A program made the position numbers and the translations under genes. From assembly GCA_963799845.1 (NCBI GenBank), contig CAWCYI010000004.1, forward strand, positions 2,074,643 through 2,138,642: 64,000 nt of DNA, given 5' to 3'. Shown in pieces: positions 13,227 through 52,066 of this stretch. This DNA is from an uncultured Nitrososphaerota archaeon (GTDB lineage Archaea; Thermoproteota; Nitrososphaeria; Nitrososphaerales; CADDZS01). The notes beneath the pieces are model-generated. The model did not search any database. It was given only the letters and a program-made list of their open reading frames with translations, and was not told where the DNA came from. Position 1 is the first letter of the stretch, and each line of letters opens with the position of its first letter.

Positions 13227-13652
13227 ATGCCGCAGCCCCGACACCACTACACCGAGCGCGGTCCCGAGAGCGATGATTCGGGGATGATGCTACGAGGCTC
13301 TTATCCCAGAAGGAATGGTGCGGCTTTGGAGAGGGCCAAGCCAAGAATCAACGCCTTCACCGATCAGCAGAGGCAAAGGCATCTTCTCGACCCTGACGAG
13401 CTGAACGAGATGGACGAGATCCAGCCAGCCAGATATTCTCAGTTCAGCACCGACAACGATTTCATTTGGGTTAGAGAGACACCGCACTACTTTGTCTACT
13501 CGGAACGCTGGATCGAGAACCGCTTGCTGGACGACCGAATCATCCAGGTCGCGATGCCGCTGCGTATGAAAGTCATAGGCGAGGCTCTGGGCCTAGCCCT
13601 TCAAGACTTTCACTATGAGAACGGGATCATGTGGGCGATTTTCAAGAAATGA
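13227..13652 (+). CDS. hypothetical protein with HY-type leader
   Basis: MPQPRHHYTER; clean 141-aa ORF. Confidence 0.7.
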   Translation: MPQPRHHYTERGPESDDSGMMLRGSYPRRNGAALERAKPRINAFTDQQRQRHLLDPDELNEMDEIQPARYSQFSTDNDFIWVRETPHYFVYSERWIENRLLDDRIIQVAMPLRMKVIGEALGLALQDFHYENGIMWAIFKK

Positions 13653-13653
13653 T

Positions 13654-14238
13654 CTAAACTAGGTGGACTGAGAGACTGATGAGAACAATTCCCGCGAGGA
13701 CCGCCAGCGCGTTGACGACCTGATTATCGTACTTGTATTGCGCCCAATGGTAGCGGGCATTGTGCAGCCCTGATTTTCCTCGAATAGTCCTCACGATGTA
13801 GATACCGCCTTCTGTCAGTATGTCCAAGAAAAGGTGGGAATAAGCGAGGCAGATTCCGAAAAGGATACTGAAATAGACCAGGTGGTTCTCTGGGGAGAAA
13901 AACGTGATTATGTACGTCGCGATCACGGCGAAGCCGATGCCCCAAAGCGGCGCAGTGTAGATCGAGTGGGTCCGAGCCATGCGAATAGGGATCGCCCCTT
14001 TGTACGGCGGCCTGTGTCCAACGAGATCTATGACCTGATTTATCGCCCAGGCGAGAAAACCAGCCCATAGGACGAGCCCCTCAATAGAATTGCCGTCGAT
14101 TGTGTACTCCCATTTGAGCTGCGTGAAGGAAAGATAGTGGGCGAGGATCGGACTGAGGTAAGGAATTCCGTAAGGGAAATGCGAGACTAGAAAGAACGCA
14201 ACTCCCAGAGTGAAAACTGTGTGCGGTGCTAGGTTCAT
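13654..14238 (-). CDS. DUF1286/YdjM-like membrane metal-dependent hydrolase
   Basis: His motifs HTVF, IDLVGH, RTHS, SHLFLDILTEGG, with TM segments. Confidence 0.7.
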   Translation of the reverse strand: MNLAPHTVFTLGVAFFLVSHFPYGIPYLSPILAHYLSFTQLKWEYTIDGNSIEGLVLWAGFLAWAINQVIDLVGHRPPYKGAIPIRMARTHSIYTAPLWGIGFAVIATYIITFFSPENHLVYFSILFGICLAYSHLFLDILTEGGIYIVRTIRGKSGLHNARYHWAQYKYDNQVVNALAVLAGIVLISLSVHLV

Positions 14239-14260
14239 CTTGCAAGACAAAGCAAGAGAT

Positions 14261-15887
14261 TTACTTTCTGACCCGGTACGCCGTAATCGACATGGAAACT
14301 ACGATGAAAATTATCACGAGGGCCCAGAGCCAGAGGGGAACGCCAAAAAACTCTAGGATGGATCCCGAATCGATTCTGACCGTGAAAGGACTCTGCACGT
14401 AAGCGTACGTCTGTCCGTTGAATTTCAGGAATTCCGCAGTTCCCTGAATTACGTAGCTTCCCGTCTTTAATCCAGGAATGTTGATCGTGAAACTGGAAGG
14501 CAGATCCGCTTTGCTGTTGGCTGCAATGTTCAGAGGAAAATCGCTCGGCGGGATCGAAAGAGACGTGCCAGAAGGGGCAGCACTCAAACTAACAGAAAGG
14601 AGCTGCGCCTGGTTTCCTGAACCCGTGTTATCTGCAATGAGATTGAAACTTTCGGAAAAGTTTGTACTGGGCGGTACGTTGAGAACCGCGTCATCGATAA
14701 AGGGATACTGCCTCGTGAAAGTCGTAGTGGTGTTAGTCGTCTCGGTAGCAAACGAATTTGTCGCGGTTATGGTTCCGCTGGAAAGAAAATTGCTCGATGA
14801 GTAGTACGTGGTGTAGTCGGTTGGATATGACACGACGCAGCAATCGCCAGCGGCAGAGGTCGAGCTTGAGCCGTACACGGCGTAGAACATGATTCCAGCA
14901 TTGCAACTATCGGTTCCATAATGCAGCGATTTATCGCAGAGGCCCGCCAAAGATGGATCTGGGGATGCAGTACCATTTCCATAGGTACCTGTGAACAATC
15001 CACCCGTCGATCCGCCTGCATAGTCGGTGTCGTACTGGTCAGCCATGAAGCAATACTGATTTCCTTCGTGATCGCCCACCCAGTTACAAGTGATGGCGTT
15101 TCCCATGCCATTTCCCGCCGAGGCTGCTTGTGAAAGCGTGAATGGATTACCAACGCCGATGGTCATTCCAACGGCACTGGGACACGTAGCCGTGTAAGGC
15201 TCGCAAGCGTTGTTGTCGAATAGCGGACCGAAATTAATTCCGAAAGAAACGTCCCACATGAAGCTATTCAGCTGGCAGTGTAACGTTGGATCCTTCTGCG
15301 GTGTAGCCATTTGAGACAAAATTAGAATAGGAGAAAACGGTTTCATTGCACGGCTGCAAAGCGCAACCCGTGAATCCGCTGAAAACATCTCCCATCAATT
15401 CGCCCGCGACCAGCGCGTCATTAGGCGAACAGTAGAGATAGGGATTGGTACTTACAAAAGTGATTACATCAGTTCCAGAGGCATTGGGAACAAAGGCATA
15501 CTCGTTATTCTGGATCAGACCACACTCAGTACCAACGTTAGTGCTGCCTAAAACCTCGGCATTGCCACAAAAGTAGCCGCCGCACCAGCCAAGCTGGTTC
15601 GGTCCGCCAGAAATCCAATTTCCGTCAGAGTCGGAGAGATTCCAGGGGTTAAAGTGCTGGTATCCACCGACCGCGATCAAAAGAAGATCGCCTGCCTTAA
15701 CAGAACAGTCCATCGTCGTCGAGACTGTTGGAACGTTGTCGGAAACATTCGCTTCGATTGCATAGCAGTTGCTTGCAAAGGTCAGCCCAGAGAACGCACT
15801 TGTAGAATGAAGTACGGGTCTGCCGACAGCGGGCAACGCGCTGATCGCAGCCAGCACAAAGATTAGACCAATAAGCATTGGTTTCAT
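14261..15887 (-). CDS. large Cys-rich surface protein with C-terminal TM anchor; frameshift ~15300-15390
   Basis: ORF 15264..15887 has the signal peptide; overlapping ORF 14261..15388 has the C-terminal anchor; GDLLLIAVG domain shared with 43644. Confidence 0.7.
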
Positions 15888-16738: not shown

Positions 16739-17779
16739 TTACTTTCTCATCATTTCCCGTCCAGCTTCCCTAGCCTGAAAACGAGCAAGATTGTCCACAG
16801 CCTTTCTAATATCATAGTCGCCCTGTAACTCTGCGTCGCGGGTCATCTTCAAGAGATCTTCATCGGAAGCTTTGATCTTTTCGGCCTGCGCGATTTCTTT
16901 CAGTCTGGTCGCCATGTCCTTCTCCGTGGGCGATTTGAATTCAAACATACGCATACGGCTCTGTACACCACGGAGAGAAAGGTCGTTGGGATCCAGCCAC
17001 TCGCTAGGCGGCTCGTTGGACGTGAAAATCGTGATAGTATTGTTTCCGTGCTTTTCGAGATCCTGACGGAACCGCAGGATAGATTCTCTGCTCGATCTGT
17101 CAGCTTCGTCCACCACCAAGACACGCTTCACGTTCTCTGACGGCGGAAGATAGCTCATAAAATTGTCCACAATGCCGCCTCGGTCCATATCCTCGACCTT
17201 CATTGGGCGATCCAGAAACAATACTGGATCGAAAACACCCTGAACCTGTTTGCCTTCTTTGTCGAACACGCCGTTGGCGATCATATAGTCCCGCGAGAAG
17301 GCTTTCGCCTCGGAAGTTTTCCCAACGCCTGGCGGACCGAAGAATATCATCGCGTAAGGGATTTCTCCGAGGGTGATCGCCCCAATTAATTCTTCCGCGA
17401 TTTCTCTGTTACCGACCGAATCCGAGACGTGGAAGGGCCGGTACTTTTCCGCGAGAGGTGCGCGATCTCCGACACCAGGATAGGTCGTTGCAGCTCGGGG
17501 GGCTTCAATCTTGTTCAGTACTGTCTCACGTTCTGCAACTGTAACTTTGGAAATCCGCTTGACCCGTCGAGGCGGTGGGGCCTCGAATTTCTTCTGGGTA
17601 AATTTCTGCTTGGTCTTGCGAGGCTGTGATTTCCTTTTCTCGACAACTTTTTCCACCACTTTCTCTCGGGGTTTAGGAAGCTCCCGTTTGGGCGGAGCTG
17701 GCGTCGCTTTCTGCTGTGGTTTTGGTCTGGCTTTTCCGCGCGCAGATCCACCCGAGGCAAGAAAGTAGTGGTGCGCCAT
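16739..17779 (-). CDS. RFC (clamp-loader) small-subunit-like AAA+ ATPase with basic N-terminal extension
   Basis: EKYRP, Walker A GPPGVGKT, Walker B VVDEAD, QSR, DIRKA; start reassigned to ATG 17779 (MAHHYF) because the longer ORF overlaps the ligase. Confidence 0.85.
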   Translation of the reverse strand: MAHHYFLASGGSARGKARPKPQQKATPAPPKRELPKPREKVVEKVVEKRKSQPRKTKQKFTQKKFEAPPPRRVKRISKVTVAERETVLNKIEAPRAATTYPGVGDRAPLAEKYRPFHVSDSVGNREIAEELIGAITLGEIPYAMIFFGPPGVGKTSEAKAFSRDYMIANGVFDKEGKQVQGVFDPVLFLDRPMKVEDMDRGGIVDNFMSYLPPSENVKRVLVVDEADRSSRESILRFRQDLEKHGNNTITIFTSNEPPSEWLDPNDLSLRGVQSRMRMFEFKSPTEKDMATRLKEIAQAEKIKASDEDLLKMTRDAELQGDYDIRKAVDNLARFQAREAGREMMRK

Positions 17780-17815
17780 TGAGAGAAAAACTGCTTTTTC
17801 AGTTGCAGTTCCCTC

Positions 17816-19168
17816 TTGGCTAAGAAACCGACCGTTGCTCATCACAATCCAAATCGGCAGCCTGCCTCGGGGAGAAACTATGGCCCTATGCCAAAGAAAT
17901 TCGGATCGGAGAGGACAGACAAAAGACCCGAGCCACCTGTAACTGAAATGGACCTCTATAAGTCCAGCATACCACATGAAGAACCGCAGACCGCAAAAGG
18001 CTACGCGAGGGTTTCGATCAGCAAGCCATCTTCGGAAGCCACTGGGCCCAAGATACTCACACAAGAACAGGTGCAGCACAAGAAAATCGACGGCCACATT
18101 GACAATCGTACCGTGATCGCCAATTATGCGAGGACTACCGAGTTCCGACCCGAGTTTTTCAAGAAGTATCAGGGAGAGGGCGAATTCTTTGTCGAGATCA
18201 AGAAGGACGGCGAGAGGAATTTCCTGCAAGTGGACGATGAAATTGTCCTAGCAAACAAGCACAAGTCCGTCTACATTACGCCTGACTCGAAATTAACAGG
18301 AAACGATTTCCCGCCAAACACTGATGTTTTTAGATCTATACCGCTGGAACTGGCTAAACAAATTAGGGCGGCAATAGGCAAACACAAAGTCATTCTCGAT
18401 ATAGAATACGTAACCTCTGAGGACGATGTGTATGACTTCCTTTCCGAAAGAGTGAACCCCAACTCGGAAAGGATGCAGGTTTCTGCCTTCGATATTATCT
18501 CCATTGACGGGAAGGACGTGCGAAATCTCAGCTACTCGGAACGCAGCAAGTTGCTGGAAAAGACCCTGAAAGACACGGAGAGGGTTCAGGTCGATAAGAA
18601 GATCATTGCACACTCGGCAGAGGAAGCGATGGCCGCTGGTGATCGGATGATCGATTTAGGCTACGAGGGCGCGGTAATCAAGCCTGGTTCCCACATCTAC
18701 GACAATTCCGAGTGGATGTTAAAGTGGAAGGCGATCAGGGAAATTGATAGCCCGGTACTCGCGATTGAAAAGACTAAGGAATGGGTGAACAATGAGATTC
18801 CCAAGTCCTTCATGTTAGGGCTGTATGATAAGGACGCGCAGGGCTTCAAGCTCATCGGCCAGGCTGGCACGGGCCTCTCTGACAAGCGACGGAAGGAATT
18901 GGTCAGCGAGATCAAAGCGAATACCATCCCGCCAGATGAAGCTCGAAAGATCTATGGACCGTCCTATGACCCCAATTTCATCTACGTCTATCCAACGATT
19001 GTTTTCAAGATCCGGTACACGAAATTAACTCCTGGACGGATCGACAACAAGACGGGAAACCGCAGACCGCCGAAACTTAGGGAACCTCGTATCGAAGATA
19101 TTCGCGCTGATAAATCGCCAGAGGAATGTAGCTACTCGCAGATCGATGTGAAGAAAGCGAAACTCTGA
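17816..19168 (+). CDS. lig: ATP-dependent DNA ligase
   Basis: Motif I EIKKDGER, III ILDIE, IIIa AFDII, IV EGAVIK, V LKWK, VI LREPR...RADK. Confidence 0.93.
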   Translation: MAKKPTVAHHNPNRQPASGRNYGPMPKKFGSERTDKRPEPPVTEMDLYKSSIPHEEPQTAKGYARVSISKPSSEATGPKILTQEQVQHKKIDGHIDNRTVIANYARTTEFRPEFFKKYQGEGEFFVEIKKDGERNFLQVDDEIVLANKHKSVYITPDSKLTGNDFPPNTDVFRSIPLELAKQIRAAIGKHKVILDIEYVTSEDDVYDFLSERVNPNSERMQVSAFDIISIDGKDVRNLSYSERSKLLEKTLKDTERVQVDKKIIAHSAEEAMAAGDRMIDLGYEGAVIKPGSHIYDNSEWMLKWKAIREIDSPVLAIEKTKEWVNNEIPKSFMLGLYDKDAQGFKLIGQAGTGLSDKRRKELVSEIKANTIPPDEARKIYGPSYDPNFIYVYPTIVFKIRYTKLTPGRIDNKTGNRRPPKLREPRIEDIRADKSPEECSYSQIDVKKAKL

Positions 19169-19212
19169 TGCCTAATCCCAATCCGCGTAAGAAAAGCTAG
19201 TTTTTCTGATAG

Positions 19213-19644
19213 TTGCCGTCTCACCATTTCCCGAGCCGTCATCCTCGCTTTCTGCCAAAATCTGAGCAGTACGTCTTGGTCAAGAAAGGCGAACAGGAGA
19301 GAAAGGTTCGCGCCTTTTCCCCAGGACACGGCCACGAATGGGAGAAGCGCGAGATCAGTCGGCAACGCGCCCTGAGAGGAAACAAGTGTGAAGTACCGGG
19401 ATGCAACAGCAGACGGAACCTAGACTTTTCCCACATCAAACACACTCCGATCCTCGACAAACCGTGGGTCAAAGAGAACAGGTTCAATCCCTCTGCCAAT
19501 CGTGGAATGAAAAATCGAGTGCTGGACATTCGCAAATATCCTGACCGCTACAAGTTGATGGACAGGTCGCACAACAGACTTTTCGACAACTGGCGAAAGC
19601 AGAACCCTGGAAAGACGTGGGATGACTGGATCAAGACGCTCTAG
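19213..19644 (+). CDS. HNH-like (Zn-binding) endonuclease with HFP leader
   Basis: GNKCEVPGC..LDFSH...LMDRSHN; N-terminus MPSHHFPSR. Confidence 0.6.
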   Translation: MPSHHFPSRHPRFLPKSEQYVLVKKGEQERKVRAFSPGHGHEWEKREISRQRALRGNKCEVPGCNSRRNLDFSHIKHTPILDKPWVKENRFNPSANRGMKNRVLDIRKYPDRYKLMDRSHNRLFDNWRKQNPGKTWDDWIKTL

Positions 19645-19679
19645 GCCGTCCTACAAAATTTTCTTTTTCCTTTGGACTC

Positions 19680-20198
19680 TTGAGCTATCGCCACTATCCG
19701 AACCGTCAGCCGAGGCAAAAGATCACTAGGGAACATACTCATCCCGCGATCTACGTTCAGGACAAATGTTGCGACGGCTGCGGACGCTCTTTCAAAGGTA
19801 TGACTCTAGGCGAGGTCAGAGAACACAAAGGCCAGCACCGCGCCCGCCAGTCGCTCGGTGGGAGAGAGCCTGATGTGATACAAATTCACAACGAGGTTAC
19901 AGGTTTCCACAACGGCCAGATGGACGGCCATTACAGGGTCGCCGTGAACGGGATCGTCAGGGGCTACCTGGACTATTCGGAATATCCTCATCCCAACGGG
20001 GATCCTTACATAAACATGATCGAGGTTACGCCGCGCTTTCAGCATCAGGGTCTTGCTAGGAAAATGGTGGAAGAGCTGGCGAAGGAATTCGGCGGGTACC
20101 AGAAGATTCGTTGGGGCATGTTGACCGATGACGGCCTGAAATTCAAAGAACAGTTGGACAGAGAGTTCGAGGCGAAGTCTCAAAGATATGAGAGTTAG
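19680..20198 (+). CDS. GNAT acetyltransferase with Zn-finger and HYP leader
   Basis: IEVTPRFQHQGLA (acetyl-CoA motif A), LTDDG, CDGC. Confidence 0.75.
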   Translation: MSYRHYPNRQPRQKITREHTHPAIYVQDKCCDGCGRSFKGMTLGEVREHKGQHRARQSLGGREPDVIQIHNEVTGFHNGQMDGHYRVAVNGIVRGYLDYSEYPHPNGDPYINMIEVTPRFQHQGLARKMVEELAKEFGGYQKIRWGMLTDDGLKFKEQLDREFEAKSQRYES

Positions 20199-21411: not shown

Positions 21412-21597
21412 TAGCCTCACCACTATCCGCATCGTGGTCGCGCGCGCGCTACGTGTGATGGCTGCCAAAGCTGCTGGACAGAAAGAGATGTACGCGTGGG
21501 TCTTTTACAAGCGCATGCTGACAATTCTTCGATCTTCAACAGCAACAGCGACCACGGGCATACGTCCGTGTATGAATTGGATTTTTACAATAGATGA
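21412..21597 (+). CDS. unannotated HYP-leader CxxC protein with damaged start (TAATAG in place of TAATG)
   Basis: Open frame 21415-21597 PHHYPHRGRARATCDGC...; stop overlaps the next start as ATGA. Confidence 0.6.
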
Positions 21598-22043
21598 CGA
21601 AGCACTATCCCGAGAGATCGCCACGCAAGAGACTCAAGAAAAATATTCCTCTGAAAGAGGGTCGAGTGGACCGAGGCACGGATCTGGGAGTTATCAACGC
21701 CAGGGATGAACTGTCAGGGGAGAACGTCTCAATTCCGTGGCGCGTTAGAGATGAGCAGCACATACGACCGCTAGAATCTCTTACACCTCTGGAACAGACA
21801 CGTTATCTAGCATTGCCGATTGAAAGGTTCTCCGTGGACGCACCGCAGAGAACTCTCTTTGAATCCGTGCAAAATCCCGAGAACTGGAAATATCCGACGA
21901 GGCCCGCGAAGGTCGCGAGCTTGCCCGAGGCTGAGGCCCTTTCGAGAGCCATTTCATATTTCGCTGGCGGATCGGAAATAACCGATCTTAGTAGTGGGTA
22001 CGTCGTGAGCTCGAAGGGATACTATCACTACGTTGGAAGTTAG
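21594..22043 (+). CDS. virus-type hypothetical protein with HYP leader
   Basis: MTKHYPER; C-terminus PENWKYP...SKGYYHYVG. Confidence 0.75.
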   Translation: MTKHYPERSPRKRLKKNIPLKEGRVDRGTDLGVINARDELSGENVSIPWRVRDEQHIRPLESLTPLEQTRYLALPIERFSVDAPQRTLFESVQNPENWKYPTRPAKVASLPEAEALSRAISYFAGGSEITDLSSGYVVSSKGYYHYVGS

Positions 22044-22494
22044 GAAGTTAGGAAGTTTGCGTAACTCAGAAGCAGAGAAAGCGTGGCTCGCCTGCGCGAT
22101 TGATTCGGAAGGACTGATCTACTTCCGATTAACCCGAAAGGGAAAGGTCGTCATCAATCTGAAAGTTTCAAACACGGTTAGAGAATTCAGCCGAATGGCT
22201 CAGATAATAGCGGAAACGGGTTACTTAGTCTTGAACGAGCAAAAAAACATGAGTCACAAAACGGGGAAGAAATATAGGACAGTCTTTATTTGGCTCGTTG
22301 AGAACCAAAAAGATATTCTTGAAATCCTTCAAGCGATAGAACCTTATCTGATCGTTAAGAAGGAGAAAGCTAGGGCAGTTATTAATCACATTCTAATACG
22401 CCGAGAATTTTCCCCACAGCTTTTGCCAAGCACCGATATTTTCAATCTCTGTCTCGCGGCGTTAAAAGTTCCTCATGGAAAGAAAGGATCTTGA
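22033..22494 (+). CDS. single-motif LAGLIDADG homing endonuclease
   Basis: AWLACAIDSEG; LKVSNT; ILQAIEPYLIVKKEKA. Confidence 0.85.
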   Translation: MEVRKLGSLRNSEAEKAWLACAIDSEGLIYFRLTRKGKVVINLKVSNTVREFSRMAQIIAETGYLVLNEQKNMSHKTGKKYRTVFIWLVENQKDILEILQAIEPYLIVKKEKARAVINHILIRREFSPQLLPSTDIFNLCLAALKVPHGKKGS

Positions 22495-22526
22495 TCGGGG
22501 CGCACTACTACGTCGGGGCATAGTAA

Positions 22527-23117
22527 ATGACAAACCATTATCCTCGGAGAAAGCCGCGCAGAAAGAAGGCTGGACTCGGACCGACGCCCGGATCAGATTC
22601 TCAGAAAAAAGCTACTGAGGATTTGATCCGAGAATTTTCAAACCTGACCGCAGAACAGAAAGAACTGATTCGCAAGATGGGATTCACCGCAGCTAATCTC
22701 GGTGAGCGAAATGAGGAAATACGTTCAGCAGCCGAGGAAACCATTCTGAAACTGCGTGAGGAAATGGCAGCCCAGATCACCAGGTCTGATCTTAGTTGGG
22801 GCAGTAAATCGAGTGTCTGGGATGCTTTCGACAGCCCAGAAGCTCAGCAGCTCAGGCCGCAGATCAACAGGATTGTCCTCGACATTTTGGATCGCGCCCT
22901 CAACTCGATGGAACTATGGATCGACAACACTGATTGGAACAAGTACGGAATCTCTGAATTGCGAAAGGGGATGCAGTTGGAGATCGAGAATAGCGAAGAT
23001 CTTCTCAAAAGTAATCTGCAACTAGAACCCGTGGTGCAGCAGAAATCGGATATGTCGCCCAAAGCCCAAGAATTCCTGAATGAGTTTGAAAATACTCGGG
23101 TCAATCCAGAGACTTGA
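22527..23117 (+). CDS. helical hypothetical protein with HYP leader
   Basis: MTNHYPRRKPRRKK. Confidence 0.75.
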   Translation: MTNHYPRRKPRRKKAGLGPTPGSDSQKKATEDLIREFSNLTAEQKELIRKMGFTAANLGERNEEIRSAAEETILKLREEMAAQITRSDLSWGSKSSVWDAFDSPEAQQLRPQINRIVLDILDRALNSMELWIDNTDWNKYGISELRKGMQLEIENSEDLLKSNLQLEPVVQQKSDMSPKAQEFLNEFENTRVNPET

Positions 23118-36997: not shown

Positions 36998-37448
36998 ATG
37001 TCGCACCACTATCCGAATCGCAAGAACGGCTCTCCGCCCCACTCTGGATCTCCCCACGGCGGTAGCAACGAGAAGGAACCCGAGCGAGAGAAGCCGGTTG
37101 TTTCAGACGTACCAACAGTAGTCAGGATGGGCGACAAGATTTTCAAAATTGGTGAAGGCGGGTCGCCTCTGGCAATCGAAAGATGAGAACGCCATCGGTG
37201 TAACTTTCGAGGGCTGGATGGACTTTATGACGGGGAAAAAATACAAAGACAAGCCTGAGCTCGACAGCGAATATTTTTGGTATGCTCTGCTCGCGGTCCC
37301 GAAGGGAGATAGAGACAGAGAGCCGTCGATCAACAAGTATTCGCCTTTGGTAATTAGGTCAGTAAGTTACTCCTCGGTCATGCAACAGCTCAAGAAGTGG
37401 TATGACGAGAACGGACAGAAATCGACCTGGGAGCTGCGAGAGGATTAA
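36998..37448 (+). CDS. HYP-leader protein, frameshift at A-run ~37145-37148
   Basis: MSHHYPNR...IFK | LVKAGRLW joins two ORFs on deleting one A. Confidence 0.65.
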
Positions 37449-41485: not shown

Positions 41486-41532
41486 TTTAGCACCATTTTT
41501 GACTGACTCCTAATTCGTTCTTTCCGCGTTGG

Positions 41533-43010
41533 TTTGTGGGGCGGCTCCATTTCAGGGATTGGGAGCCGCCCGTACCTCTGGCGGATGGACAGATTATTCT
41601 GATCACCAAAATGTGTAGGAGTTGGAATAGTGATATGAAGCGAAAGAATCAGAGAAATTCAGTCAGCAAATTAAGGGAGGAAGTCAGCGAGGCTAATGGT
41701 ATGACAAACCCCACAGTTGCAGGTGTAGATTTAGGCGACAGTACGAGCTTGGCCACGGTACTCTCTCCGAGCGGAGATATGATGGACAGATTCACGTTCC
41801 AGATGAAGCAGGAAGGATATCAGATTCTCGCAGACAGACTACCGGAGAATGCAAAGATAGCGTGCGAAGCCACAGGAATGGTCTACCCATTCTTTAGAGC
41901 AATGACCCAGTTTGGTTACGACGTTACCGTCGCAAATACAAAAGAACTAGCCTGGATTTCGAAATCGAAAAAGAAAAATGATAAGACAGATAGCTTGAAA
42001 CTTGCAAAGCTCCACATGGCAGGCATACTACCTGAGGCTCACCTGTTGACAAGAGAGGAGCAGCTCACGAGAGATCTTTTGATTCAAAGGGTCAGGTTGG
42101 GACAGGACGTCACCAAGCTCAAGCTCAGGATCTTGAGCTATCTCAGCGCGAGGGAGTGAACGAGCTGCTCCCGGTGACAAGTGACAACTTCTCAGTCAAG
42201 AGAAGGAGTGCCATACGCGCGATGAAGTTCGGTGACGAAAGGGACATTGTGGTCAATTCGATGTTGGACAGACTTGAGTTCCTAGAGGAACAGTGTTCTC
42301 CCTTTGAAGAAGCCATCAGGGGCAGAGCCAAGGAGAGTGAGGACGTGAAAATAATAATGTCCGTTCAGGGAATAGATTTCTATTGCGGGTCGCTCCTCTC
42401 TTCATTCATTGGTGATGTAAACAGGTTTCCTACTGACGGCCACCTTGCAAGCGCGTTCGGAGTCGTTCCTGTCCAGCGGGACAGCTCCGATGTCAAAAGG
42501 AGAGGCAGGATGTCGAAGGATGGTCCCGCAATTGTAAGATGGGTACTCTCCGTCGTGACTGACACAGTTATGCAGAACAATGAGCAAATTAAGGCGTACT
42601 ACGAATCGGTGAAGAAAAGGACAGGAAGAAGCAAGAAAGCTCGCGTAGCAACTATGAGGAAGCTCACACGAATGTTCTACTTCATGCTGAAGAACAGACA
42701 AAACTGGAAGTGGGAGAATCCAGAATTGACAAGAGCGAAGATATCTAGACTGGGAGGCGCATCTAACTAACTAACAGGTCTCGGATAGAAAGAAAAGTGG
42801 GATTGAGCAACACAGCCTAACCACTCGTATAGGACTGAGCATTAGAGCTCTTAATTTTGAACGTGGAGCTTCTGTCTCCGCTGAATTGTCAGGTTGCGCG
42901 TTAGAGCGCTTATGGGTGTTTGCGGAAAAGACAGAAGCAGGCCTGCTGCTATCCACTTTGATTCGTCCAGAGAGACAATGTTAATAGAGGTGATGCTCCA
43001 AGCCCACATA
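41533..43010 (+). mobile_element. IS110-family insertion sequence (ends approximate)
   Basis: Transposase, left hairpin GGGCGGCTCC/GGAGCCGCCC, weak subterminal IR TGTGGG/CCCACA, ~240-nt non-coding right end. Confidence 0.7.
41701..42770 (+). CDS. IS110 DEDD transposase/recombinase, frameshift ~42144
   Basis: GVDLG, CEATG, KNDKTD; GDVNRF...GVVP..RDS...GRMSKDG; ARVATMRKL. Confidence 0.9.
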
Positions 43011-43321
43011 GGGCAGTCTGTCTATCAGCCAGGTGAACGAGCCAACTCAGACGAACGAAATTAGATGGGTGTCCTATACCTAGAAGAATAGGACAGGCAA
43101 GAACTAAGAAGGTTTGTTTACTTATTCCGAGTTGAAGTTTATTCCCGAACTCGCGATTTCGTTGGCATTATCGCAACACATCTCTCTCAAAATCAAGTCT
43201 CCTTATCGTCGTTCCTGAGAGCAGTTTCCTGCATGCGTCTCTGTGTATCGTCTTCCGAACTATCAAGATTCATGATCGGTGAATTGTTTTAATTTAGGTT
43301 CAGCTCTCTATAACTTGAATC

Positions 43322-43549
43322 ATGAGAAGACAGACAATGACGATTATAACGATTGTCATCGTAGCGGGAATAATATTCTTCTTCCTTGCTCCCGTGCAAC
43401 CCGTTAACGTTAGATTCGGTTGCCGCAGTTGCTATGGCAGCTACTATCATTCCCTCAGTTGTAATGTTTTCGCTCCTTCACTCGGCGTTGTGTATTATCA
43501 ATCAAAGTTTAGCTTGGGGTGCCATGCAAACATTCCCGCTGTTTTGTGA
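43322..43549 (+). CDS. small membrane protein, Cys-rich
   Basis: TM, FFLAPVQP, GCRSC. Confidence 0.65.
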   Translation: MRRQTMTIITIVIVAGIIFFFLAPVQPVNVRFGCRSCYGSYYHSLSCNVFAPSLGVVYYQSKFSLGCHANIPAVL

Positions 43550-43643
43550 TTCTGTTTCTAAGTGAGTCTGGAGGGAGCTAGGACGTTCCGTGTCCTAACT
43601 CCTACCAAGAGTCTTGCGTTCGCAAGGATTCAGATCCTGCGAC

Positions 43644-45146
43644 CTACTTCGAAAGGAACACTGCCGCCGACTCCGACCATACGTATCCGCTTGAGGAGCA
43701 CGTGAACGAGCCTGAAAAAGGCACTGTGGTTGATACCCCAGATGATGGCACGGAATATTCTGAAGCGCCTCTGTAGAGCCCTTGATGAATGATAAATCCG
43801 GTGCCGGCTCCGAGATTAGTTCCACACCCTACGCTATCCCCGAACACTCCCAGGGCGAAACCGGAAGTCGATGGGCTCATTGAACCAACTGACGGCGTCG
43901 AAGAGTAAGTTCCATGTCCGTTCGAGACATAGATTGTACCTGATTGTATATTGTTGATCTCGTAGACGAATACGTCAGCATCTCCTGCACTTCCTGTCAT
44001 GGTGACCGTAATTGTGATGCCGAATCCCGAATCAGCGGGATGCCCATACCAAATGGAAGAATATGCATTGTTGGGGGTTCCCGTAGCTGAACCCGGCGGA
44101 AGTTCGTTATAAATCGAGCCTCGATTGTCCGTGACTCCTTGAACACTGTTAATATTCGAGCCCACAGCGATTAGGAGAGTGTCCGACGTGCTCTGAGGGG
44201 TTATATTTACCTGGACCATCCCCACTCCGGCCCCGGAATTATGCTGGTACTGTACAAGGGACGCGAGGCCAAAACCCTGCTCGTGCGAACTCACATAGCT
44301 ATACAACATATTGCTGTCCTCGCCCGTCTGGTAGCACAGTCCGTTGGATCCTCCCATAAACTGACCTGGGGCATTCGTGCAGGCACCGGTAAATGGATTC
44401 ACTTTAGAGTAAGTTATTGTGCCTGAGCCACCAGTGAATGTCGTAGTAGGGCATATGAGGGGATCACATGGTCCCACGATGCCGAAGTCTTGCTGTGAAT
44501 CGTGATAGTAAGTAATAGTAGGGGTGTTATTGATCTGGTTAGGATAGATGTAGGTGCTTACAGAATGTGCGCCAGTTGCAGACAACAAGAAGTCGTTAAC
44601 GTTGTCATGCGAAGTAGTCGGATTGCCCCGTCCATCTATCTCAAAAGCAAGCTGCGTACCTGCAGATGTCCATAGAGTTGGATACTGAGTCTCCATCGTT
44701 GCACCAGTGTCGGCGGTATTGGGCATTGTCGCCAAGTTCGGCCAAAATTCAATGGTGTAACAAGAGGCACTTTGGCCAACAATGAGTGCCTGCTGAATCC
44801 ACGACCAGCTCCCGTCGGATTTTTGGACGACGTTATTCTGATAACTGAAAGTGTATGTTTCCTGACTACACGAGGGTGGAGGCGAACCACTGTAGGTTGT
44901 GCCTGTTACGATATTGGTTTTGATGTTGACCGTTGAGGTAAAGAATGTGGTTATCACTCCGCTACTGTTAGTGATAGGGTTGAATACATAGTTGGTCGCG
45001 CCTTCTTCGCCGTAGACATATGGAGTGGTGATAGTCATGAGTAGGGAAATGGCTCCGATGATAATAATTGAGATTTTGATATTTGTTTTCAAAATTATCG
45101 CCTTTCCTAGTTGACTCCGAAATGCAGAATCACATAACTGCCCCAA
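43644..45146 (-). CDS. secreted protein with a possible thermopsin-like N-terminal domain
   Basis: Signal peptide; FSYQNNV...WIQQ resembles thermopsin SLQLN...YWxQN; C-terminal domain shared with 15264. Confidence 0.6.
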   Translation of the reverse strand: MGQLCDSAFRSQLGKAIILKTNIKISIIIIGAISLLMTITTPYVYGEEGATNYVFNPITNSSGVITTFFTSTVNIKTNIVTGTTYSGSPPPSCSQETYTFSYQNNVVQKSDGSWSWIQQALIVGQSASCYTIEFWPNLATMPNTADTGATMETQYPTLWTSAGTQLAFEIDGRGNPTTSHDNVNDFLLSATGAHSVSTYIYPNQINNTPTITYYHDSQQDFGIVGPCDPLICPTTTFTGGSGTITYSKVNPFTGACTNAPGQFMGGSNGLCYQTGEDSNMLYSYVSSHEQGFGLASLVQYQHNSGAGVGMVQVNITPQSTSDTLLIAVGSNINSVQGVTDNRGSIYNELPPGSATGTPNNAYSSIWYGHPADSGFGITITVTMTGSAGDADVFVYEINNIQSGTIYVSNGHGTYSSTPSVGSMSPSTSGFALGVFGDSVGCGTNLGAGTGFIIHQGLYRGASEYSVPSSGVSTTVPFSGSFTCSSSGYVWSESAAVFLSK

Positions 45147-46121
45147 ATGTCGCCGACCAAAAGCGAGTATTCACCTGGAGCAAAATGCACGAATTGGGCT
45201 AGACTGGCATCGTAATAACCATTCACTTGATAGGAAGCGATCGCTGGATATCTGACACTACTCTCGACAGGGTTAGAGGAGGACTGTGGACTAGTTATTA
45301 TGGAAGTGGAAGTCGAAGTAATGCAAAATGAAGTAGAATAACTTGTGACAGTGCTGCCATCAGACATTGTGGAGGTTTGATTGTTAAGACTGCACGAAGT
45401 GTACACTTCAGTTTGAGTTGAAGCTGAAATCGAAACTGAAACAGAAGAATTTGTGCGTACTGCCGTAAGCATATTGCTGCTAGGATCGAAGCTGTAGTCA
45501 GCTATAATTCCCCGAGCGTGGGCAGAGCAGTGGTCCGGGGGCACGCCATGGAATTGGTGTTGCCGAGCTAATATTAGAGGACGCATAGAATCCGGAATAA
45601 AGAGCATCATTGAACAAGCCACCCTTGCACTGTCCCACGAGAGACTGAAACGCCCAGCCCGTGTTCGAAGAGACATTGTTGTAGGATGAAAGCGTGTTGA
45701 ATGCCTCAATAGAGATGGTAAGGTTTCCTCCCTGCGCTAATGAGACCGTATCTAAACTAGCATTCAGCCGAATTCCGTTATTCGATGTTTGTGCTGCCGA
45801 ACTTGGGGAAGTATTGGCCAAACTTGTAGAAAGTGTTGTTGGATTTTGAGGGGTGCGAGAAGAAGTTGAATTTGTAACCTGACCGGTCGTACTAATTCCT
45901 CCAAGGGCCACCCAAACCCCGCCGGCTATGATAATGGTAACAAATGCTAATCCGACCAAGGTAGTTTTCGAAAGGGCGCTTTGAAGTCGTTTGGCTCTTA
46001 CTCCCTCAACGTTTGTGATCATTCTTGCCGTCGGCTGCGTATGAGAATGTGGATTAGATAAAGTATTCCTATTTTTGCTGAATGATATATCATTTTCTGT
46101 CAAACAAACGAATATCATCAA
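45107..46121 (-). CDS. secreted protein (family B), frameshift ~45510
   Basis: Two overlapping ORFs together collinear with 3325..3993. Confidence 0.7.
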
Positions 46122-46220
46122 TTCCGATATAGTAGGGTTAGGATCTTAAGATATCTGAAAATCAGCCTGACTTGGATCCTGTTAAGTTATGTTGAGAGAA
46201 TTTCTTGGACGAGCCCTTCC

Positions 46221-46391
46221 TTACCCATTTGCTCCAAAACCGTGGCCGTTGCCCTGTTTCATTAGCAACTCATTGATCTTGTTGCTTGCATCTTCCTTAG
46301 TCAGACCTGTAAGCTCGCCGTCGCTTACTCCCTTGCTTTCCAAAAGTGCCTTTTGTTTGTCGGTCGCCATTTGCATTATTCCATCGTCCAT
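46221..46391 (-). CDS. small ATxKQ-motif protein
   Basis: ATDKQKALL...LTKEDASNKINEL; similar to the N-terminus of 47201. Confidence 0.6.
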   Translation of the reverse strand: MDDGIMQMATDKQKALLESKGVSDGELTGLTKEDASNKINELLMKQGNGHGFGANG

Positions 46392-46573
46392 CCAAATCAC
46401 TTACAATTCTGAATTATTTTGAGCTTTAAGATTCAAGATACCTTGTTTTGTTTTTGATTATTTTCAGAAACAAGTCCTAAAATTCCAAGTGTAAGACAAA
46501 AAAACAAAAGGACAAAATGTCAGTTTTTGTCTTTCTGGGTTGGTCCGGAAGGGTGTCTTTCTAAAAAAATTTC

Positions 46574-46711
46574 CTACGTGTTTTTGAGTAACTTGGATAA
46601 TGCGTCAATGATAAGATCGTTAATCGTCACGCCTCTTGTTTTGGATTCCTGTTTTAGAATCTCCCTTGTTTCTTCCCTAACGGTTATGTTCTTCCATCCT
46701 TTTTCCGGTAT
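46574..46711 (-). CDS. RHH DNA-binding protein with probable AUA start
   Basis: (I)PEKGWKNITVREETREILK...TINDLI; GGTGA SD upstream. Confidence 0.65.
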   Translation of the reverse strand: MPEKGWKNITVREETREILKQESKTRGVTINDLIIDALSKLLKNT

Positions 46712-46863
46712 TTTATCACCTTACTGAATATTAATTTCGAAGGTCGGGTCGCCTGATTCATCGAAAAATTTCGGGAGGCCGCCGGACTCCCGTGCGCCCA
46801 ATGCACAAAGCCGAGTTGCATAAGATCAGTTATTCTATCACCTTTTGGTTTTATATAGCCTGA

Positions 46864-47201
46864 CTAGTCAACTCGTTTATTGGATTTCTCGATCCAATAC
46901 TTCAATCCGTAGACCTGTCTACTCGTTTCCTGGATAAGCGCGATGTGCGCCTCTTTCAGTTCGGACTTGTCTTTTAGTCCAAAATAGTCCATGACTATTC
47001 GGGCTGCCTCTCCTAAATTCAGGGTACCTGCAATAATGCAGCCTCCTTTCTGTCCGGAGGGGTGTTTTTTCTTCCCTCCCTTGCACGTTTAACGAGTTCC
47101 GCTAACATCTGACTCGCTTCCTCTATACTTAGAGACTGTATTGTTTCTTCTGAGACCTTGAAGTTTCTCAGAGCCTCGATTTGTTTTGTTGTTGGATTCA
47201 T
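46864..47201 (-). CDS. hypothetical protein, frameshift ~47040
   Basis: GGTGA SD; PTTKQIEAL; second frame open to TAG at 46864. Confidence 0.6.
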
Positions 47202-47212
47202 ATTTTCACCTA

Positions 47213-47419
47213 TCAATATCTAACAATCTGTTTCATAATATCCGAAATCTGGTCAGTCACCAGAATTACTGCTTTCAGCGGACAAATACTAGATTTACAC
47301 TCAAATAACGTAAAGTCGTTATTTTCCGTGCTTCCCTTTACTGCCAAAAACGTCCTACAATTTGGACATGACAAAGACACCTTTTCTATTCTATTTTTCG
47401 TTTCCTTTGCTACAAACAC
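47213..47419 (-). CDS. Zn-ribbon protein
   Basis: CPNC...C....C; GGTGA SD. Confidence 0.65.
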   Translation of the reverse strand: MFVAKETKNRIEKVSLSCPNCRTFLAVKGSTENNDFTLFECKSSICPLKAVILVTDQISDIMKQIVRY

Positions 47420-48634
47420 ACTATCACCATTGTTTCATATTCTTGGACTAAAATTACCACATGCGTTAACTTGCGACCCGACCAGCCAGCGCCCTCGTAA
47501 GCGTCAGCGCACGAGCTGGCGATGGCTAATATTAATTCAATTTCAAAACTCTTTCAAAATCATACACTCACAGTCTAACACTATCTTAGTAGGCAATTTC
47601 TCTGTCTATCCTGCGACTGGCAGCTTCATGCAACTGAGATGCAGCAGATGTCATATTAGATTCTACCTGCTTAAAGTAAAACATGCGAGCTTTGATAATA
47701 ATATTCTTTGTCTCGCTCGCGGTATCTATCTCGCCCGCAGGTGCGGGCTCACAAAGTAGCCCCTTTTCTTTACCTGGATTCTCATCCCTTTGTCTGTAAT
47801 TTCATTTCTCAGTTTATGGACGAATGTCTAGTCATCCCCGAGATCTAGATGGCGGACAAAGTATATTGACATACTTCTACCCTGAGGAAGCAGAAGCTTT
47901 TGCAGCAATAAGAGGTTCGACCTTAGTTCCACAGCAATTCTTCAGTATTGAATAGAGTTCATTGAGCATTGGCTCGGTGATCACTCGTGGCGAAAAATCC
48001 CACAATCGAATAAATCCACTTCCTTTTGATTTCAAATCGAAAATCTTAATCCATCCTGACAGATACTTCGTGGAGAACTAACTCTACGTTCTTGTCTTGC
48101 GGTGCTTGAAACGCGAGATCGTAAAGTATGATCATGCTTAATATTTAGATTTAAGACCGAATTCTCTTCTGAACCAATCCAAGAACCTAACGTAAACTCC
48201 GCCAAAGAGAATTTCCAAGACCGTAGACGAACCTAGACCGAAAAGAGCCGCCTCAACTGACTTTGACGTGTTTAGAAAAACTGGGCGTTTAGAGAATCGT
48301 CCAGAAGATTGCCATAGCACCCGCATCTACGGCGAATCGCTTTATCGAGAATCCCTGACCCAAATTATGAATTGAAAAAGGTAATCTCAAATAAATTGTT
48401 GTATGCTGATATACGCACGCAAACAGATTACTTACTTTCGTGCCGTCCATATTTCTTTTTGGCTGTGTTCATACAATCATCAAAAGTTGTTTTCCTTCGG
48501 AGGAAGCCATACTTCTCATCAGCAACGTAGCCGGCGTAGGGCTTTTTGTCAAAAGTGTCGGAGCCGATGGCTGAGTAAGCGTCCTAGCATGACAACCTTT
48601 GATTTCAAATCAGGGCTCAAATTTAGCGGATGAT

Positions 48635-49694: not shown

Positions 49695-49727
49695 ACTAAA
49701 AACCAGTTTCTACTTTAAGGACGCAGA

Positions 49728-51306
49728 TTGTTGCAAAAGGCTACCGCGCTGAGTGAGGAATGTTGCCCGCCGATCCGGATCACGATTGAGGATCTGGTGA
49801 GGTTGAAACGTGAAGGTTCCCTGATCGTTCCAGGCTTCCAGCGAAAAGAGGTCTGGCCCCACCACTACAAGCAGAATCTAATCGCGAAGATACTCAGACG
49901 CAGACCGCTGCCCGAGTTTCTACTTTTTCTAAATCCTGACACGAAGAAATACGAGATTATCAATGGCCAGCAAAGAATAGCCTCGATTTTTGATTTCGTG
50001 AACGGCAGGATAACCGCCGTCAGCTATCCGCTGATGGAACCCGACGAGACAGAGATCAGCTACGGGTTGATGAGCGATGCCGAGAGGGAGAGATTCTTCA
50101 CTTATCCAATGTTCGCGAGGATTGCTCGAACCAAAGAGGACATGCAGCTGATCCGACAGTACTACGACGATTGGAACAGGTACGTCGTGGCGCTTTCGCC
50201 TCAGGAGCTTCGCCACGAGAAATTCTACGGTACTCGCATGTTGAATCTGGTGGAGAGGCTGGCAGAACAGGATGGCTGGCTACAAGAACACAAAATCGTC
50301 TCCCCAAAGGAAGTGAGTCGGATGGGAGATATTCAATTTGTCAGCGAGTTGCTGCTAGGGATTGAGAAAGGAATTCAGGACCGCCACGCATCTGTCGATC
50401 TTTTCTTTGCAGAATTTGATGACTCAAAGTTTCCCGTGGAAATGATGAGGACGTGGGCGACAGATTTCAGCACGACAAAGGATCTCGTACTCAGAATTTT
50501 AGGCAATCAGCTACGAGGAACATACTGGAATAACCGAGCAGATTTCTATTCGCTGTTCATCGCTGTCGATATTCTGAGTCGGCAGCCATGAATTTCTTGA
50601 GGCGCGGGATCCAGACATTCGCCGCAAGCTGATCGCGTTCAAGAAAACCTGCGTGAAGGACGGGCTTAATTCCCAGGACGCAGACGTGCGGCAGTACCAC
50701 TCGGGAGTTTGGAGAGGCGGCCTGAATGACAAAAGAAATCGCGAGAAGCGAACCGAGGTTTTGGTGAGGATCCTGAAACCCTATCTCGCGCCAACGTACA
50801 AACACGAGCAACCAGTACAGACCATTGTTTCAACGGTCAGAGAAGTGGTGAAAGAGGTCGCGAAGATTCCGCCAATCTTCAAAGACATGAAACCTGTCTT
50901 TCCATTGCAGCCAAAAGCACAGCAGCAGCCAACACCCGAACCCGAAGCGAAAGAGGACAGCCGACAGTACCGGGTACAGTTCATCGAGAAATTCTGCAAC
51001 GAGAGGAAAGGCAAGAATGACGCTGAGGGAGTCGGCCTCATCACCAGCTTCATCCTCTACATCGGATCCGAGAATTTCAAAGAGCTCAACGCTTTCCTAA
51101 ATGGACCCAATCGCGGCCACGTCTCGCTGGAAGATCGACACCTGTATCTGATGCAGGTCGAAAAGACGGCGTACATCGAAATATGGAATCTGCCAAAAGG
51201 AGACGACAACGCCCGAGTGATCAAGCAGATAAAATTCAGCTTGATCGAAGTGGAACAAGATCGCGCAGAGACTTTTGAAGGGCTTCTGATAACAACAAGA
51301 GGATGA
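49728..51306 (+). CDS. DUF262 (GmrSD/ParB-like) domain protein, frameshift ~50580
   Basis: PGFQRKEVW, IINGQQR, QELR; alternative frame open from ~50585 into ORF 50653. Confidence 0.8.
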
Positions 51307-51358
51307 AGCCAGATCGCGACTTGGCTGACTCGTAAAACCTCACTTTGCTTTTTCTTCT

Positions 51359-52066
51359 ATGCACAATCCTCGGCACTATCCGCAGCGACGCCCGGCCTCT
51401 CGACCACGCCGAGGACCGTCGAGGAAGGGGAAGGCTCTACCAAAAAGAGAGCAGCCAGAATTCATCGGTCAATTCCCCACTAATCTTGATGAGACTAAGC
51501 CGCTGTCGGGAGAGCTCCTTTTCAAAATCTTTGAAGCTCTGAACGAGTCCAAAGAACACATGCTACTGATGCCGCAATATCCTCATGAATTCGCGGATAA
51601 AGTTGGTCTGCGAGAAGAGTACGATAACCCGTACGATGATACGTTGCACGAATTGATCTTCGACGATTTCAATCAAGCGTTGTATTCGATACAGGATGCA
51701 AAGGGAAACTGGTACACGCCAGACACAAGCGGCCTGACTATTGGGACGGGCTTCACCGATGAGCTGAGATTAGGCAAAGATGGATTCGTGTACTTCCGTG
51801 GAGTGTTCCCCGAGAGTATGGTAGCTGACGCAAGCAAGATGCCAGGCACGGGAGAGAAATCTGACATGGGAGATCGGCGAGTCTACGTACAGATGCGGGT
51901 GAATCCCAATAACGTCTCGACCTTTTTGCTGAACGAATGGCTCAAGAGACTAAACAAGCATGTTTCAGGGTTCGACCCCGAGACTAGTACTTGGATGGGG
52001 CCGAAAGGAGAATTCGAGGATAAGGCTCTGGGCGGCGAATTCTTTCATAAAGATAAGAGTGCTTGA
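51359..52066 (+). CDS. hypothetical protein with HYP leader
   Basis: MHNPRHYPQRRPASRPRR. Confidence 0.75.
   Translation: MHNPRHYPQRRPASRPRRGPSRKGKALPKREQPEFIGQFPTNLDETKPLSGELLFKIFEALNESKEHMLLMPQYPHEFADKVGLREEYDNPYDDTLHELIFDDFNQALYSIQDAKGNWYTPDTSGLTIGTGFTDELRLGKDGFVYFRGVFPESMVADASKMPGTGEKSDMGDRRVYVQMRVNPNNVSTFLLNEWLKRLNKHVSGFDPETSTWMGPKGEFEDKALGGEFFHKDKSA

Follow-up and report, generated by a model that had tools for sequence, protein, structure and literature searches.

A short N-terminal motif on some thirty unrelated soluble proteins of a mobile-looking archaeal region, and its possible role as a recognition tag

About 31 otherwise unrelated soluble proteins, encoded in one mobile-looking stretch of the genome of an uncultured soil and peat archaeon, begin with a translated and selectively maintained short linear motif, here called the leader. 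The window that was analysed is 64 kb long and forms the end of contig C4 (2,138,642 bp) of a 4.6-Mb genome in nine contigs; the leader genes span about 85 kb (C4:2,041,570-2,126,708), of which window positions 13227-52066 are the right part. The core of the leader reads M-x(1-11)-[KRH]-H-[YF]-P-x-[RK] and is followed by a Lys/Arg/Pro-rich arm, and some proteins carry [YF]-F-L-[AV] as an alternative or additional motif. A sequence-only reading of the window had drawn attention to such N-termini on about ten proteins and proposed that they carry a portable signal. The leader looks like a private address label of the element that occupies this stretch and, by analogy with known systems, may be a terminal cargo or recognition tag, for which no receptor was found in the region. 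Tentatively, it is taken here as a possible recognition tag for delivering proteins together with the DNA of the element.

Inspection of the N-termini gave 31 open reading frames (ORFs) with the leader or with a looser HH[YF] or YFLA form, nine in the window and 22 upstream. Twenty-one of the latter are packed in a dense 23-kb block (C4:2,041,570-2,064,830), and two further short leader ORFs were found through a DNA box that precedes many of these genes. All ten N-termini named in the sequence-only reading are present where it placed them; those at 13227 and 17779 (minus strand) possess the HH[YF] part of the motif but not the P-x-R part. The leader copies of the window, with three of the boxes, are the following (lengths in amino acids, aa, or nucleotides, nt).

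13227..13652, plus strand: ORF of 141 aa starting MPQPRHHYTER, a loose variant (HHY only) with a rather acidic tail; no Pfam match
16739..17779, minus strand: AAA+ clamp-loader-like protein of 346 aa starting MAHHYFLAS (HHY plus the YFLA variant), followed by a Lys/Pro-rich arm of about 110 aa
17786..17800, no strand assigned: palindromic box AAAAACTGCTTTTTC within the 36 nt that separate the divergent genes for the clamp-loader-like protein and the ligase
17816..19168, plus strand: ATP-dependent DNA ligase of 450 aa, TTG start, N-terminus MAKKPTVAHHNPNRQP
19192..19206, plus strand: box AAAAGCTAGTTTTTC, ending 6 nt ahead of the TTG start at 19213
19213..19644, plus strand: ORF of 143 aa starting MPSHHFPSRHPRFLPK, with both motif types; no family match
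19655..19669, plus strand: box AAAATTTTCTTTTTC, ahead of the TTG start at 19680
19680..20198, plus strand: GNAT acetyltransferase of 172 aa starting MSYRHYPNRQPR; Pfam Acetyltransf_1 at 1.2e-5, above the cut-off
21415..21597, plus strand: leader copy PHHYPHRGR straight after TAA-TAG, without ATG, GTG or TTG
21594..22043, plus strand: 149-aa ORF with the N-terminus MTKHYPERSPRK and a T5 run beginning 12 nt ahead of the ATG; no family match
22527..23117, plus strand: ORF of 196 aa starting MTNHYPRRKPRR; no family match
36998..37186, plus strand: 62-aa ORF with the N-terminus MSHHYPNRK and a T6 run 5 nt ahead of its ATG
51359..52066, plus strand: ORF of 235 aa starting MHNPRHYPQRRP; no family match

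The labels ligase, RFC-like and GNAT, given earlier from the letters alone, agree with Pfam: the ligase matches DNA_ligase_A_M (1.3e-18) and DNA_ligase_A_C (4.1e-12), with domains from residue 114, and the clamp-loader-like protein matches AAA (7.9e-6) and DNA_pol3_delta2 and is 26-31% identical to RFC small subunits. The label HNH for the 19213 ORF is not borne out, as this ORF has no HNH match in Pfam or PHROGs; the HNH gene of the window is another one, at 52339-52806, and is leaderless.

The motif is strongly enriched at N-termini over background, as a check posed beforehand had asked. The genome has 209 six-frame matches to H[YFN]PxR, 28 of them near the start of an ORF, and 15 of these 28 fall within C4:2,042,388-2,126,016. 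When all ORFs of at least 60 aa are counted, H[YF]PxR stands in the first 22 residues of 13 of the 331 ORFs in an 87-kb stretch versus 3 of the 16,106 elsewhere (Fisher p = 3.8e-20), and its internal density is 0.00 per 1000 aa in the stretch versus 0.01 elsewhere. Likewise, [KH][YF]FL[AV] is N-terminal in 5/331 ORFs of the stretch versus 0/16,106 elsewhere. The window itself has 11 six-frame matches to the strict H[YFN]PxR, all on the plus strand. Eight of them (17843, 19225, 19692, 21421, 21603, 22536, 37007 and 51374) lie at most 22 codons past a stop in frames of at least 58 codons, and the remaining three (4552, 15109 and 34573), in frames of 10-22 codons, look like chance. Of the 31 leader proteins, 17 have the His at residue 4 or 5 (range 2-16), 27 have P, A, S or T as their second residue, and 12 start with TTG or GTG.

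The pattern of conservation is that of a coding sequence. In an alignment of 19 strict copies on the His codon, the first two positions carry about 2 bits of information in the His and Pro codons and 1.0-1.3 bits in the Arg codon, while the third positions of Pro and Arg carry 0.15 and 0.07 bits, respectively; the Arg is written as CGN or AGA and is occasionally replaced by Lys. Three ortholog pairs link the present genome with G002, a genome of the same genus. In these pairs nonsynonymous and synonymous differences (pN and pS) amount to 0.38 versus 0.82 in the first 25 codons (codons 2-25) and to 0.30 versus 0.88 in the remainder of the proteins, the synonymous sites being saturated, and H[YF]PxR is retained in all three pairs though the flanks differ. 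The 51359 protein, MHNPRHYPQRRP, has the G002 ortholog MAKHYPQREPRSP, while the G002 orthologs of the 22527 ORF and of the 19680 GNAT start with MSSHHFPRRSPKKK and MSSHHYPNRRSP, respectively. Because pN is far below pS over the first 25 codons, the leader is, on these sequence comparisons, translated and under purifying selection. Furthermore, public gene calls of orthologs (P0003 and P0118-P0125) include it. An all-against-all BLASTP linked the leader proteins almost solely through the leader and gave one true paralog pair, 32% identical and with H-Y still common to both, so that by this comparison the carriers are not paralogs of one another.

These results bear out what had been read from the letters alone, namely a portable N-terminal motif on unrelated proteins (BLASTP, codon periodicity and pN/pS) that is conserved at the protein level with synonymous codon variation, the third positions being free and the codon periodicity clear. 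The earlier proposal to look for the leader in homologs also had a positive outcome, since it is kept in orthologs from G002 and from metagenomes. Two alternatives had been named beforehand as checks: the codon-periodic conservation speaks against a DNA or RNA element, and the first 25 codons evolve as coding sequence, which speaks against true starts farther downstream.

Some copies deserve separate mention. The 21415 copy is probably decayed or else uses an unusual start codon, and contigs of other runs have small indels in it at 21439 and 21514. The near-identical public protein P0121 has the same start Met as the 21594 ORF. H-Y is kept in the 51359 orthologs P0001 (85%) and P0003 (61%) and in the 32% paralog at C4:2050413-2051141. 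In one public gene call, P0002 (191 aa, 99% identical over 74%), the N-terminal region of the 51359 protein is read in a different frame, which implies a difference of 1 nt between this copy and the window; the reading frame of the window is matched by P0001 and P0003. The leader protein MNKHYPNRKPRFFLV (C4:2054496-2055077, L057) has 193 aa here versus 327 aa in its ENA ortholog P0120 and may be truncated in the present genome.

In the sets searched, the leader is restricted to this element and its relatives, which are few (G002 and some short metagenome contigs). In G002, a 9-kb contig (C144), on which the comparison of neighbourhoods rests, carries the end of the ligase gene and three leader genes; an ortholog from a same-genus genome bears the NCBI label 'Candidatus Bathyarchaeia archaeon'. 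A 20-column leader profile (E<=0.05) matched only 2 of the 13 genomes of the family, the present one and, on a single contig, G002 (this tally, that of the search that led to the G002 contig and that of the host PCNA include the unpublished genome G001, on which no other result depends), and because of this distribution the region is judged not to be core genome. Among 400 other genomes sampled at class level, nine had one match each, which is chance level. The counts from the leader hidden Markov model are partly circular, as 18 matches in the present genome are training sequences, and the ORF counts by regular expression are the independent test. A 40-column profile was also compared with a set of 5.8 billion longer proteins, of which the best 8000 candidates by word sharing were scored: all eight matches are proteins of this element or their orthologs, and some come from a 31.8-kb ENA contig. 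An exhaustive HMMER search of 1.84 billion representatives gave two proteins at E<=0.001, both from the element; so short a profile has little power, and distant variants of the leader could be missed.

DNA of the element is present in soil and peat metagenome runs of several studies, and contigs of four DNA runs were compared with the window; no RNA run is among the 14 runs with element DNA. Neither the 51359 protein nor the ligase had a relative in IMG/VR, the metagenome contig scan with the 51359 family gave one 1.2-kb locus, and the genome contig scan with the clamp-loader family gave only one bacterial match, which is unrelated. The ESM Atlas had no usable match to the 51359 protein, and a full-text literature search for the motif strings returned nothing relevant.

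Beyond the core motif, the carriers have a common build. Residues 1-40 of the 31 leader proteins contain 25% K+R, 7% D+E and 12% P, compared with 12%, 9% and 4% in 152 other ORFs, in agreement with the Arg/Lys/Pro-rich stretch noticed earlier after the motif; by composition, this stretch ahead of the folded domain looks disordered. The Pfam domains begin after the arm, between residues 53 and 144 (LPD29 at 53, DUF6876 at 79, GNAT at 83, ligase at 114 and AAA at 144). A hydrophobic 19-residue window (mean Kyte-Doolittle of at least 1.6) is found in 0/31 leader proteins versus 55/116 other ORFs of the stretch, which upholds the earlier remark that the secreted proteins lack the leader and, together with the enrichment counts, supports its confinement to soluble proteins of one mobile-looking region. 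Each leader protein has at most one recognised domain type, and the majority have no recognisable domain; the cargo is thus not only DNA-acting, contrary to what the sequence-only reading had supposed.

Many leader genes are also preceded by a palindromic DNA box of the form A4-5-N3-6-T5-[C/A], which ends 4-12 nt ahead of the start codon. A T run of four or more, beginning 6-30 nt upstream of the start codon, occurs in 18/31 leader genes versus 19/153 other ORFs (p = 2e-7). The genome contains 169 full boxes; 16 of them lie in the 87-kb stretch, where 3.2 would be expected, and 13 of these 16 stand directly ahead of a leader-type start. Besides the three sites of the window listed above, boxes lie at C4:2047304-2061685 (L006/L007). 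In divergent gaps of 34-36 nt one box is common to both genes, as at 17786-17800, where a T5 run precedes a start codon on both strands. Host genes are unlike leader genes in this respect: their AT content peaks weakly between -38 and -26, GGAG-type motifs lie between -20 and -11, and T5 runs are scarce around -10. In archaea the TATA box lies about 25 bp from the transcription start site. With this spacing, an ordinary TATA box of a leaderless message would lie farther from the start codon than the box does; an operator, an unusual promoter and an element of the 5' untranslated region (5'-UTR) are candidates. The tag and the common upstream box together suggest that the tagged genes may form one regulon.

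How might such a leader work? In the reading that is tentatively preferred here, the motif would be a common handle for one receptor, and the basic arm would hold the tagged proteins on nucleic acid, so that the tag could load early-acting proteins of the element, together with its DNA, into a transfer vehicle. The co-delivered set would comprise the ligase, the clamp-loader-like ATPase, two GNATs, the LPD29 and DUF6876 proteins and many unknowns, and these might act at once in the new host. This arrangement would amount to a 'polyvalent protein in pieces', that is, separate proteins under one short header instead of many domains fused. A delivery tag is favoured because the tag is confined to a mobile region, because its carriers are soluble and in part DNA-acting, and because two of them hold LPD29 and DUF6876, respectively. 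A more far-reaching version, which must be considered doubtful, is that this archaeal mobile element has its own sorting code, in which HYPxR or YFLA plus a basic arm would be read by a receptor and would load some 30 separate repair, modification and anti-host proteins with the DNA, the tagged genes forming one regulon driven from the palindromic box, perhaps through a TFB homolog.

Several observations weigh against co-delivery. Pfam and PHROGs scans of 137 ORFs of the region detected neither capsid, portal nor prohead protease genes, nor any gene for a compartment shell, and the earlier suggestion of sorting into a virion or compartment, for which such genes were to be sought, gained nothing from them; as PHROGs covers archaeal viruses poorly, the absence of capsid, portal, scaffold and protease genes is weak evidence. 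The same 137 ORFs include no relaxase and no clear VirB4 or VirD4 family, and neither an integrase family nor an attachment site was found in the region. Two nearby large P-loop ATPases match HerA/DUF87 families, which are also used in defence systems. No receptor for the leader was found, the motif does not lie at a fixed distance from the N-terminus (the His ranges from residue 2 to 16), and degenerate copies occur. DNA-acting genes such as those for the PolX-thumb protein, GmrSD_N, NUDIX and the HNH protein at 52339 lack the leader. Moreover, blocks of low-GC genes for membrane proteins are interspersed among the leader genes.

Several other explanations are less favoured. It is unlikely, although part of the cargo would fit, that the tag is a docking motif that recruits enzymes of the element to a DNA-bound hub (PCNA, single-strand-binding protein or chromatin) in the same cell and without transport. 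The carriers include a ligase and a clamp-loader-like ATPase, and archaeal and eukaryotic ligases bind PCNA through short N-terminal motifs. The variants YFLA[KS], RFLPK and RFFLV resemble the APIM consensus [KR]-[FYW]-[LIVA]-[LIVA]-[KR], with matches at four of the five positions (YFLAK, FYLAK and RFLPK) in a minority of leaders; the basic arms are like SPKK-type DNA-binding tails, and the host has two PCNA paralogs while the element has none of its own. These paralogs (G000:C6:307124-307912 and G000:C8:24740-25522, 43% identical, G000 being the present genome) are, by comparison with same-genus genomes, a genuine pair and not contamination, because both occur there too. Yet the dominant HYPxR core fits neither the PIP box nor APIM, and a reading of the 31 leaders found no PIP box (Q-x-x-[LIM]-x-x-[FY]-[FY]); most carriers are without a DNA-related domain and other DNA enzymes of the region are untagged. 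A co-fold of the host PCNA (27-row alignment) with the 40-aa leader of the 19213 ORF scored 0.00 and, having been run without controls, speaks neither for nor against docking. A still simpler proposal, decidedly unlikely, is a plain arm with no dedicated receptor, whose His-Tyr and Arg/Lys/Pro tail binds DNA, RNA or, at the free N-terminus, Cu or Ni. The content of K+R and Pro in the first 40 residues is in keeping with this, as are the frequent His at 4-5 and the small residue 2, since removal of Met would bring the His near position 3, as in the amino-terminal Cu- and Ni-binding (ATCUN) site. This site is ruled out as a general explanation by the His range of 2-16. A specific five-residue core that is kept across saturated synonymous divergence also exceeds what charge or composition would need, and a plain arm leaves the confinement of the motif to one element unexplained. 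It is improbable, too, that the leader is a regulatory handle that serves as a degron or as a site for processing or modification, by which one protease, chaperone or modifier (e.g., the tagged GNATs) would control the timing of activity or stability throughout the gene set. The coupling of the tag to a common upstream box, the two GNATs in the set and the Lys-rich tails would suit such a role, but the scans of the region found no protease gene and no conserved cleavage site was found: the downstream pattern [IVLP]-P-[EKR], picked after the alignment had been seen, occurs in only 14/31 proteins, and its shuffle test (9/1000) is not trustworthy.

Two further explanations fare worse still. A DNA or RNA element that happens to be read in frame, be it a promoter, an initiator or a 5'-UTR cassette, is very improbable, as are true starts farther downstream. 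The conserved box only 4-12 nt ahead of the called starts gives this idea some footing, for if it were a TATA box the spacing of about 25 bp would put the transcript start inside the leader codons; the TTG and GTG starts and the 21415 copy without a start codon point the same way. It is at odds with the strict codon periodicity and the low pN, with Arg written as CGN and AGA and at times replaced by Lys, with a frame that always runs on into the domain, and with the public gene calls. Furthermore, the clamp-loader-like gene would otherwise have no ATG upstream of its Walker A region, behind the arm of about 110 aa. From these comparisons the DNA/RNA-element reading appears largely refuted. Hardly credible is a Sec- or Tat-type export signal, even though RFFLV and HYFLAK give about 10 leaders a letter-level likeness to the Tat consensus S/T-R-R-x-F-L-K. 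No leader has R-R before F-L (the nearest forms are PRFFLV, HPRFLPK and HHYFLAK), the tail after the motif is highly basic, and with 0/31 hydrophobic 19-residue stretches there is no h-region, which in such signals spans about 12-20 residues after the charged n-region; Sec or Tat export is ruled out by the absence of a hydrophobic region.

In its logic the leader seems most like the capsid targeting sequence of phage T4 and the RxLR and PEXEL effector motifs. The T4 sequence (on IPI-III and Alt) is likewise a short N-terminal peptide on unrelated proteins of a mobile genome that marks them for packaging and delivery with the DNA. It differs from the leader in sequence and in acting with a scaffold core and being cut by the prohead protease, genes for which were not found here, and the long basic arm after the motif belongs to the leader. 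RxLR (oomycetes) and PEXEL (Plasmodium) are lineage-specific N-terminal motifs on dozens of unrelated proteins, and, like the leader, can be told only by their position and enrichment; they follow a classical signal peptide and serve eukaryotic secretion, whereas the leader has no hydrophobic segment and an archaeal host. With the PIP box and APIM the leader has in common that a terminal short motif sits on ligase-type and clamp-related enzymes and that YFLA[KS] and RFLPK are APIM-like, but the HYPxR core fits neither and for many carriers no DNA function is known. Encapsulin and microcompartment cargo peptides are also short terminal tags on diverse enzymes; their tags are usually C-terminal or amphipathic helices, and no shell family was found in the region.

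In cargo, the leader proteins come closest to the polyvalent proteins, although the leader appears to be a member of none of the systems compared. LPD29 is listed among the polyvalent-protein domains in Iyer et al. 2017 (PMC5512222), where these proteins are argued to travel with the DNA of phages and conjugative elements, an N-terminal 'header' domain is said possibly to couple them to the transfer apparatus, and T4 Alt packaging is cited. The likeness to that account lies in the cargo (an LPD29 domain, GNAT and DNA-acting enzymes) and in the proposed delivery of early-acting proteins along with DNA. The differences are that the polyvalent proteins, as described in that paper, which is mainly about bacteria, have 2-15 fused domains behind a folded header (ArdC-N, MuF), whereas leader proteins are separate and small, with a five-residue motif and a disordered-looking arm. 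At least two unrelated effector domains per polypeptide define a polyvalent protein; the leader proteins show at most one recognised type each.

The surrounding region is of mixed composition. The genome, 87% complete, contains an archaeal small-subunit ribosomal RNA fragment, and the element is located at the end of a contig; neither a tRNA nor an above-threshold Rfam family is present in the window. G+C content (GC) alternates between blocks of about 0.50, with the leader genes, and blocks of 0.41-0.45 full of small membrane proteins (window 1-13000, 23800-33000 and 38600-47800, and C4:2,064,900-2,074,600), which are interleaved with the former. The genes of the low-GC blocks encode small paralogous proteins with a single N-terminal hydrophobic helix followed by Thr-rich stretches (…TKTETTT…). 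Recent duplicates within the region are 23404-23724 and 32207-32602 (91% protein identity), window 40868-41167 and C4:2053453-2053746 (80%), and window 661-1314 and 23859-24527 (53%). The gene inventory comprises the ATP-dependent ligase, the clamp-loader-like AAA+ ATPase, two GNATs and the LPD29 and DUF6876 proteins; a PolX-thumb protein, a NUDIX protein, a methylase-like gene, GmrSD_N, an HNH endonuclease and a homing endonuclease; and an IS110 transposase (two ORFs) and two HerA/DUF87-like ATPases of about 1,100 aa with inteins. Farther upstream lie genes for a TFB homolog and for two methylases, one of them fused to ParB. The features outside the set of leader genes are as follows.

Window 22033-22494: homing-endonuclease-like ORF, leaderless, between two leader genes; PHROG and PADLOC 'HEase' matches
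Window 33587-34255: leaderless protein that contains the thumb domain of DNA polymerase beta (PolX)
Window 41536-42770: IS110-family transposase in two overlapping ORFs, DEDD_Tnp_IS110 at 41536-42159 and Transposase_20 at 42156-42770
Window 49728-50591: leaderless GmrSD_N-type restriction endonuclease domain
Window 52339-52806: recognisable HNH gene, leaderless
Window 58017-59284: leaderless methylase-like ORF adjoining a NUDIX hydrolase
L005:7264-10545 and L005:11202-14387, both minus strand (C4:2,022,261-2,029,387): two adjacent HerA/DUF87-like P-loop ATPases of about 1,100 aa, with an intein in each
L055:2992-4290, plus strand: ParB_N-DNA methylase fusion
L055:4761-5624, plus strand: second methylase
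L055:6782-8218, plus strand: TFB (TFIIB) homolog of 479 aa at C4:1,981,782-1,983,221 (the three L055 genes together at C4:1,977,992-1,983,221)

A contig of metagenome run X3 joins position 22028 to 22509 and is without the homing-endonuclease ORF (22029-22508 skipped), which suggests that the ORF may be a recent mobile insertion. The IS110 transposase is probably frameshifted. The TFB homolog and the two methylase genes lie about 60 kb upstream of the first leader gene, and the extra TFB could drive element-specific promoters. The matches of the two large ATPases to DUF87/HerA are weak, one of their inteins has a LAGLIDADG domain, and the extein is 33-35% identical to 'ATP-binding protein' genes of bacterial plasmids, most of them non-mobilizable. 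Weak PHROG matches to 'terminase' were rejected, being due to the intein-bearing HerA-like ATPase and the HNH gene, and matches to RNA-polymerase, helicase and IF-2 families are explained by inteins and the HNH domain.

Cells and viruses commonly address cargo by shared terminal tags, and the transfer biology of archaeal mobile elements is largely unknown; apart from membrane signal peptides, we know of no terminal cargo tag of such an element, the literature check being a full-text search for the motif strings. The tag unites about 30 proteins, the majority of them without a known function, in a single functional group of an uncultured archaeon of soil and peat, and it provides a short, concrete peptide that can serve for reporter fusions, as bait for the receptor and as a search key for related elements. 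If the leader is instead a hub-docking motif or a regulatory mark, it would still be new as a short linear motif that runs through a whole element and has a promoter box to match. If co-delivery is right, the sending of proteins along with DNA would exist in archaea too, in a modular, tag-based form, and a sorting code of this kind would be a trans-acting counterpart of the polyvalent proteins of bacteria, and no cargo signal of an archaeal mobile element would have been described before it.

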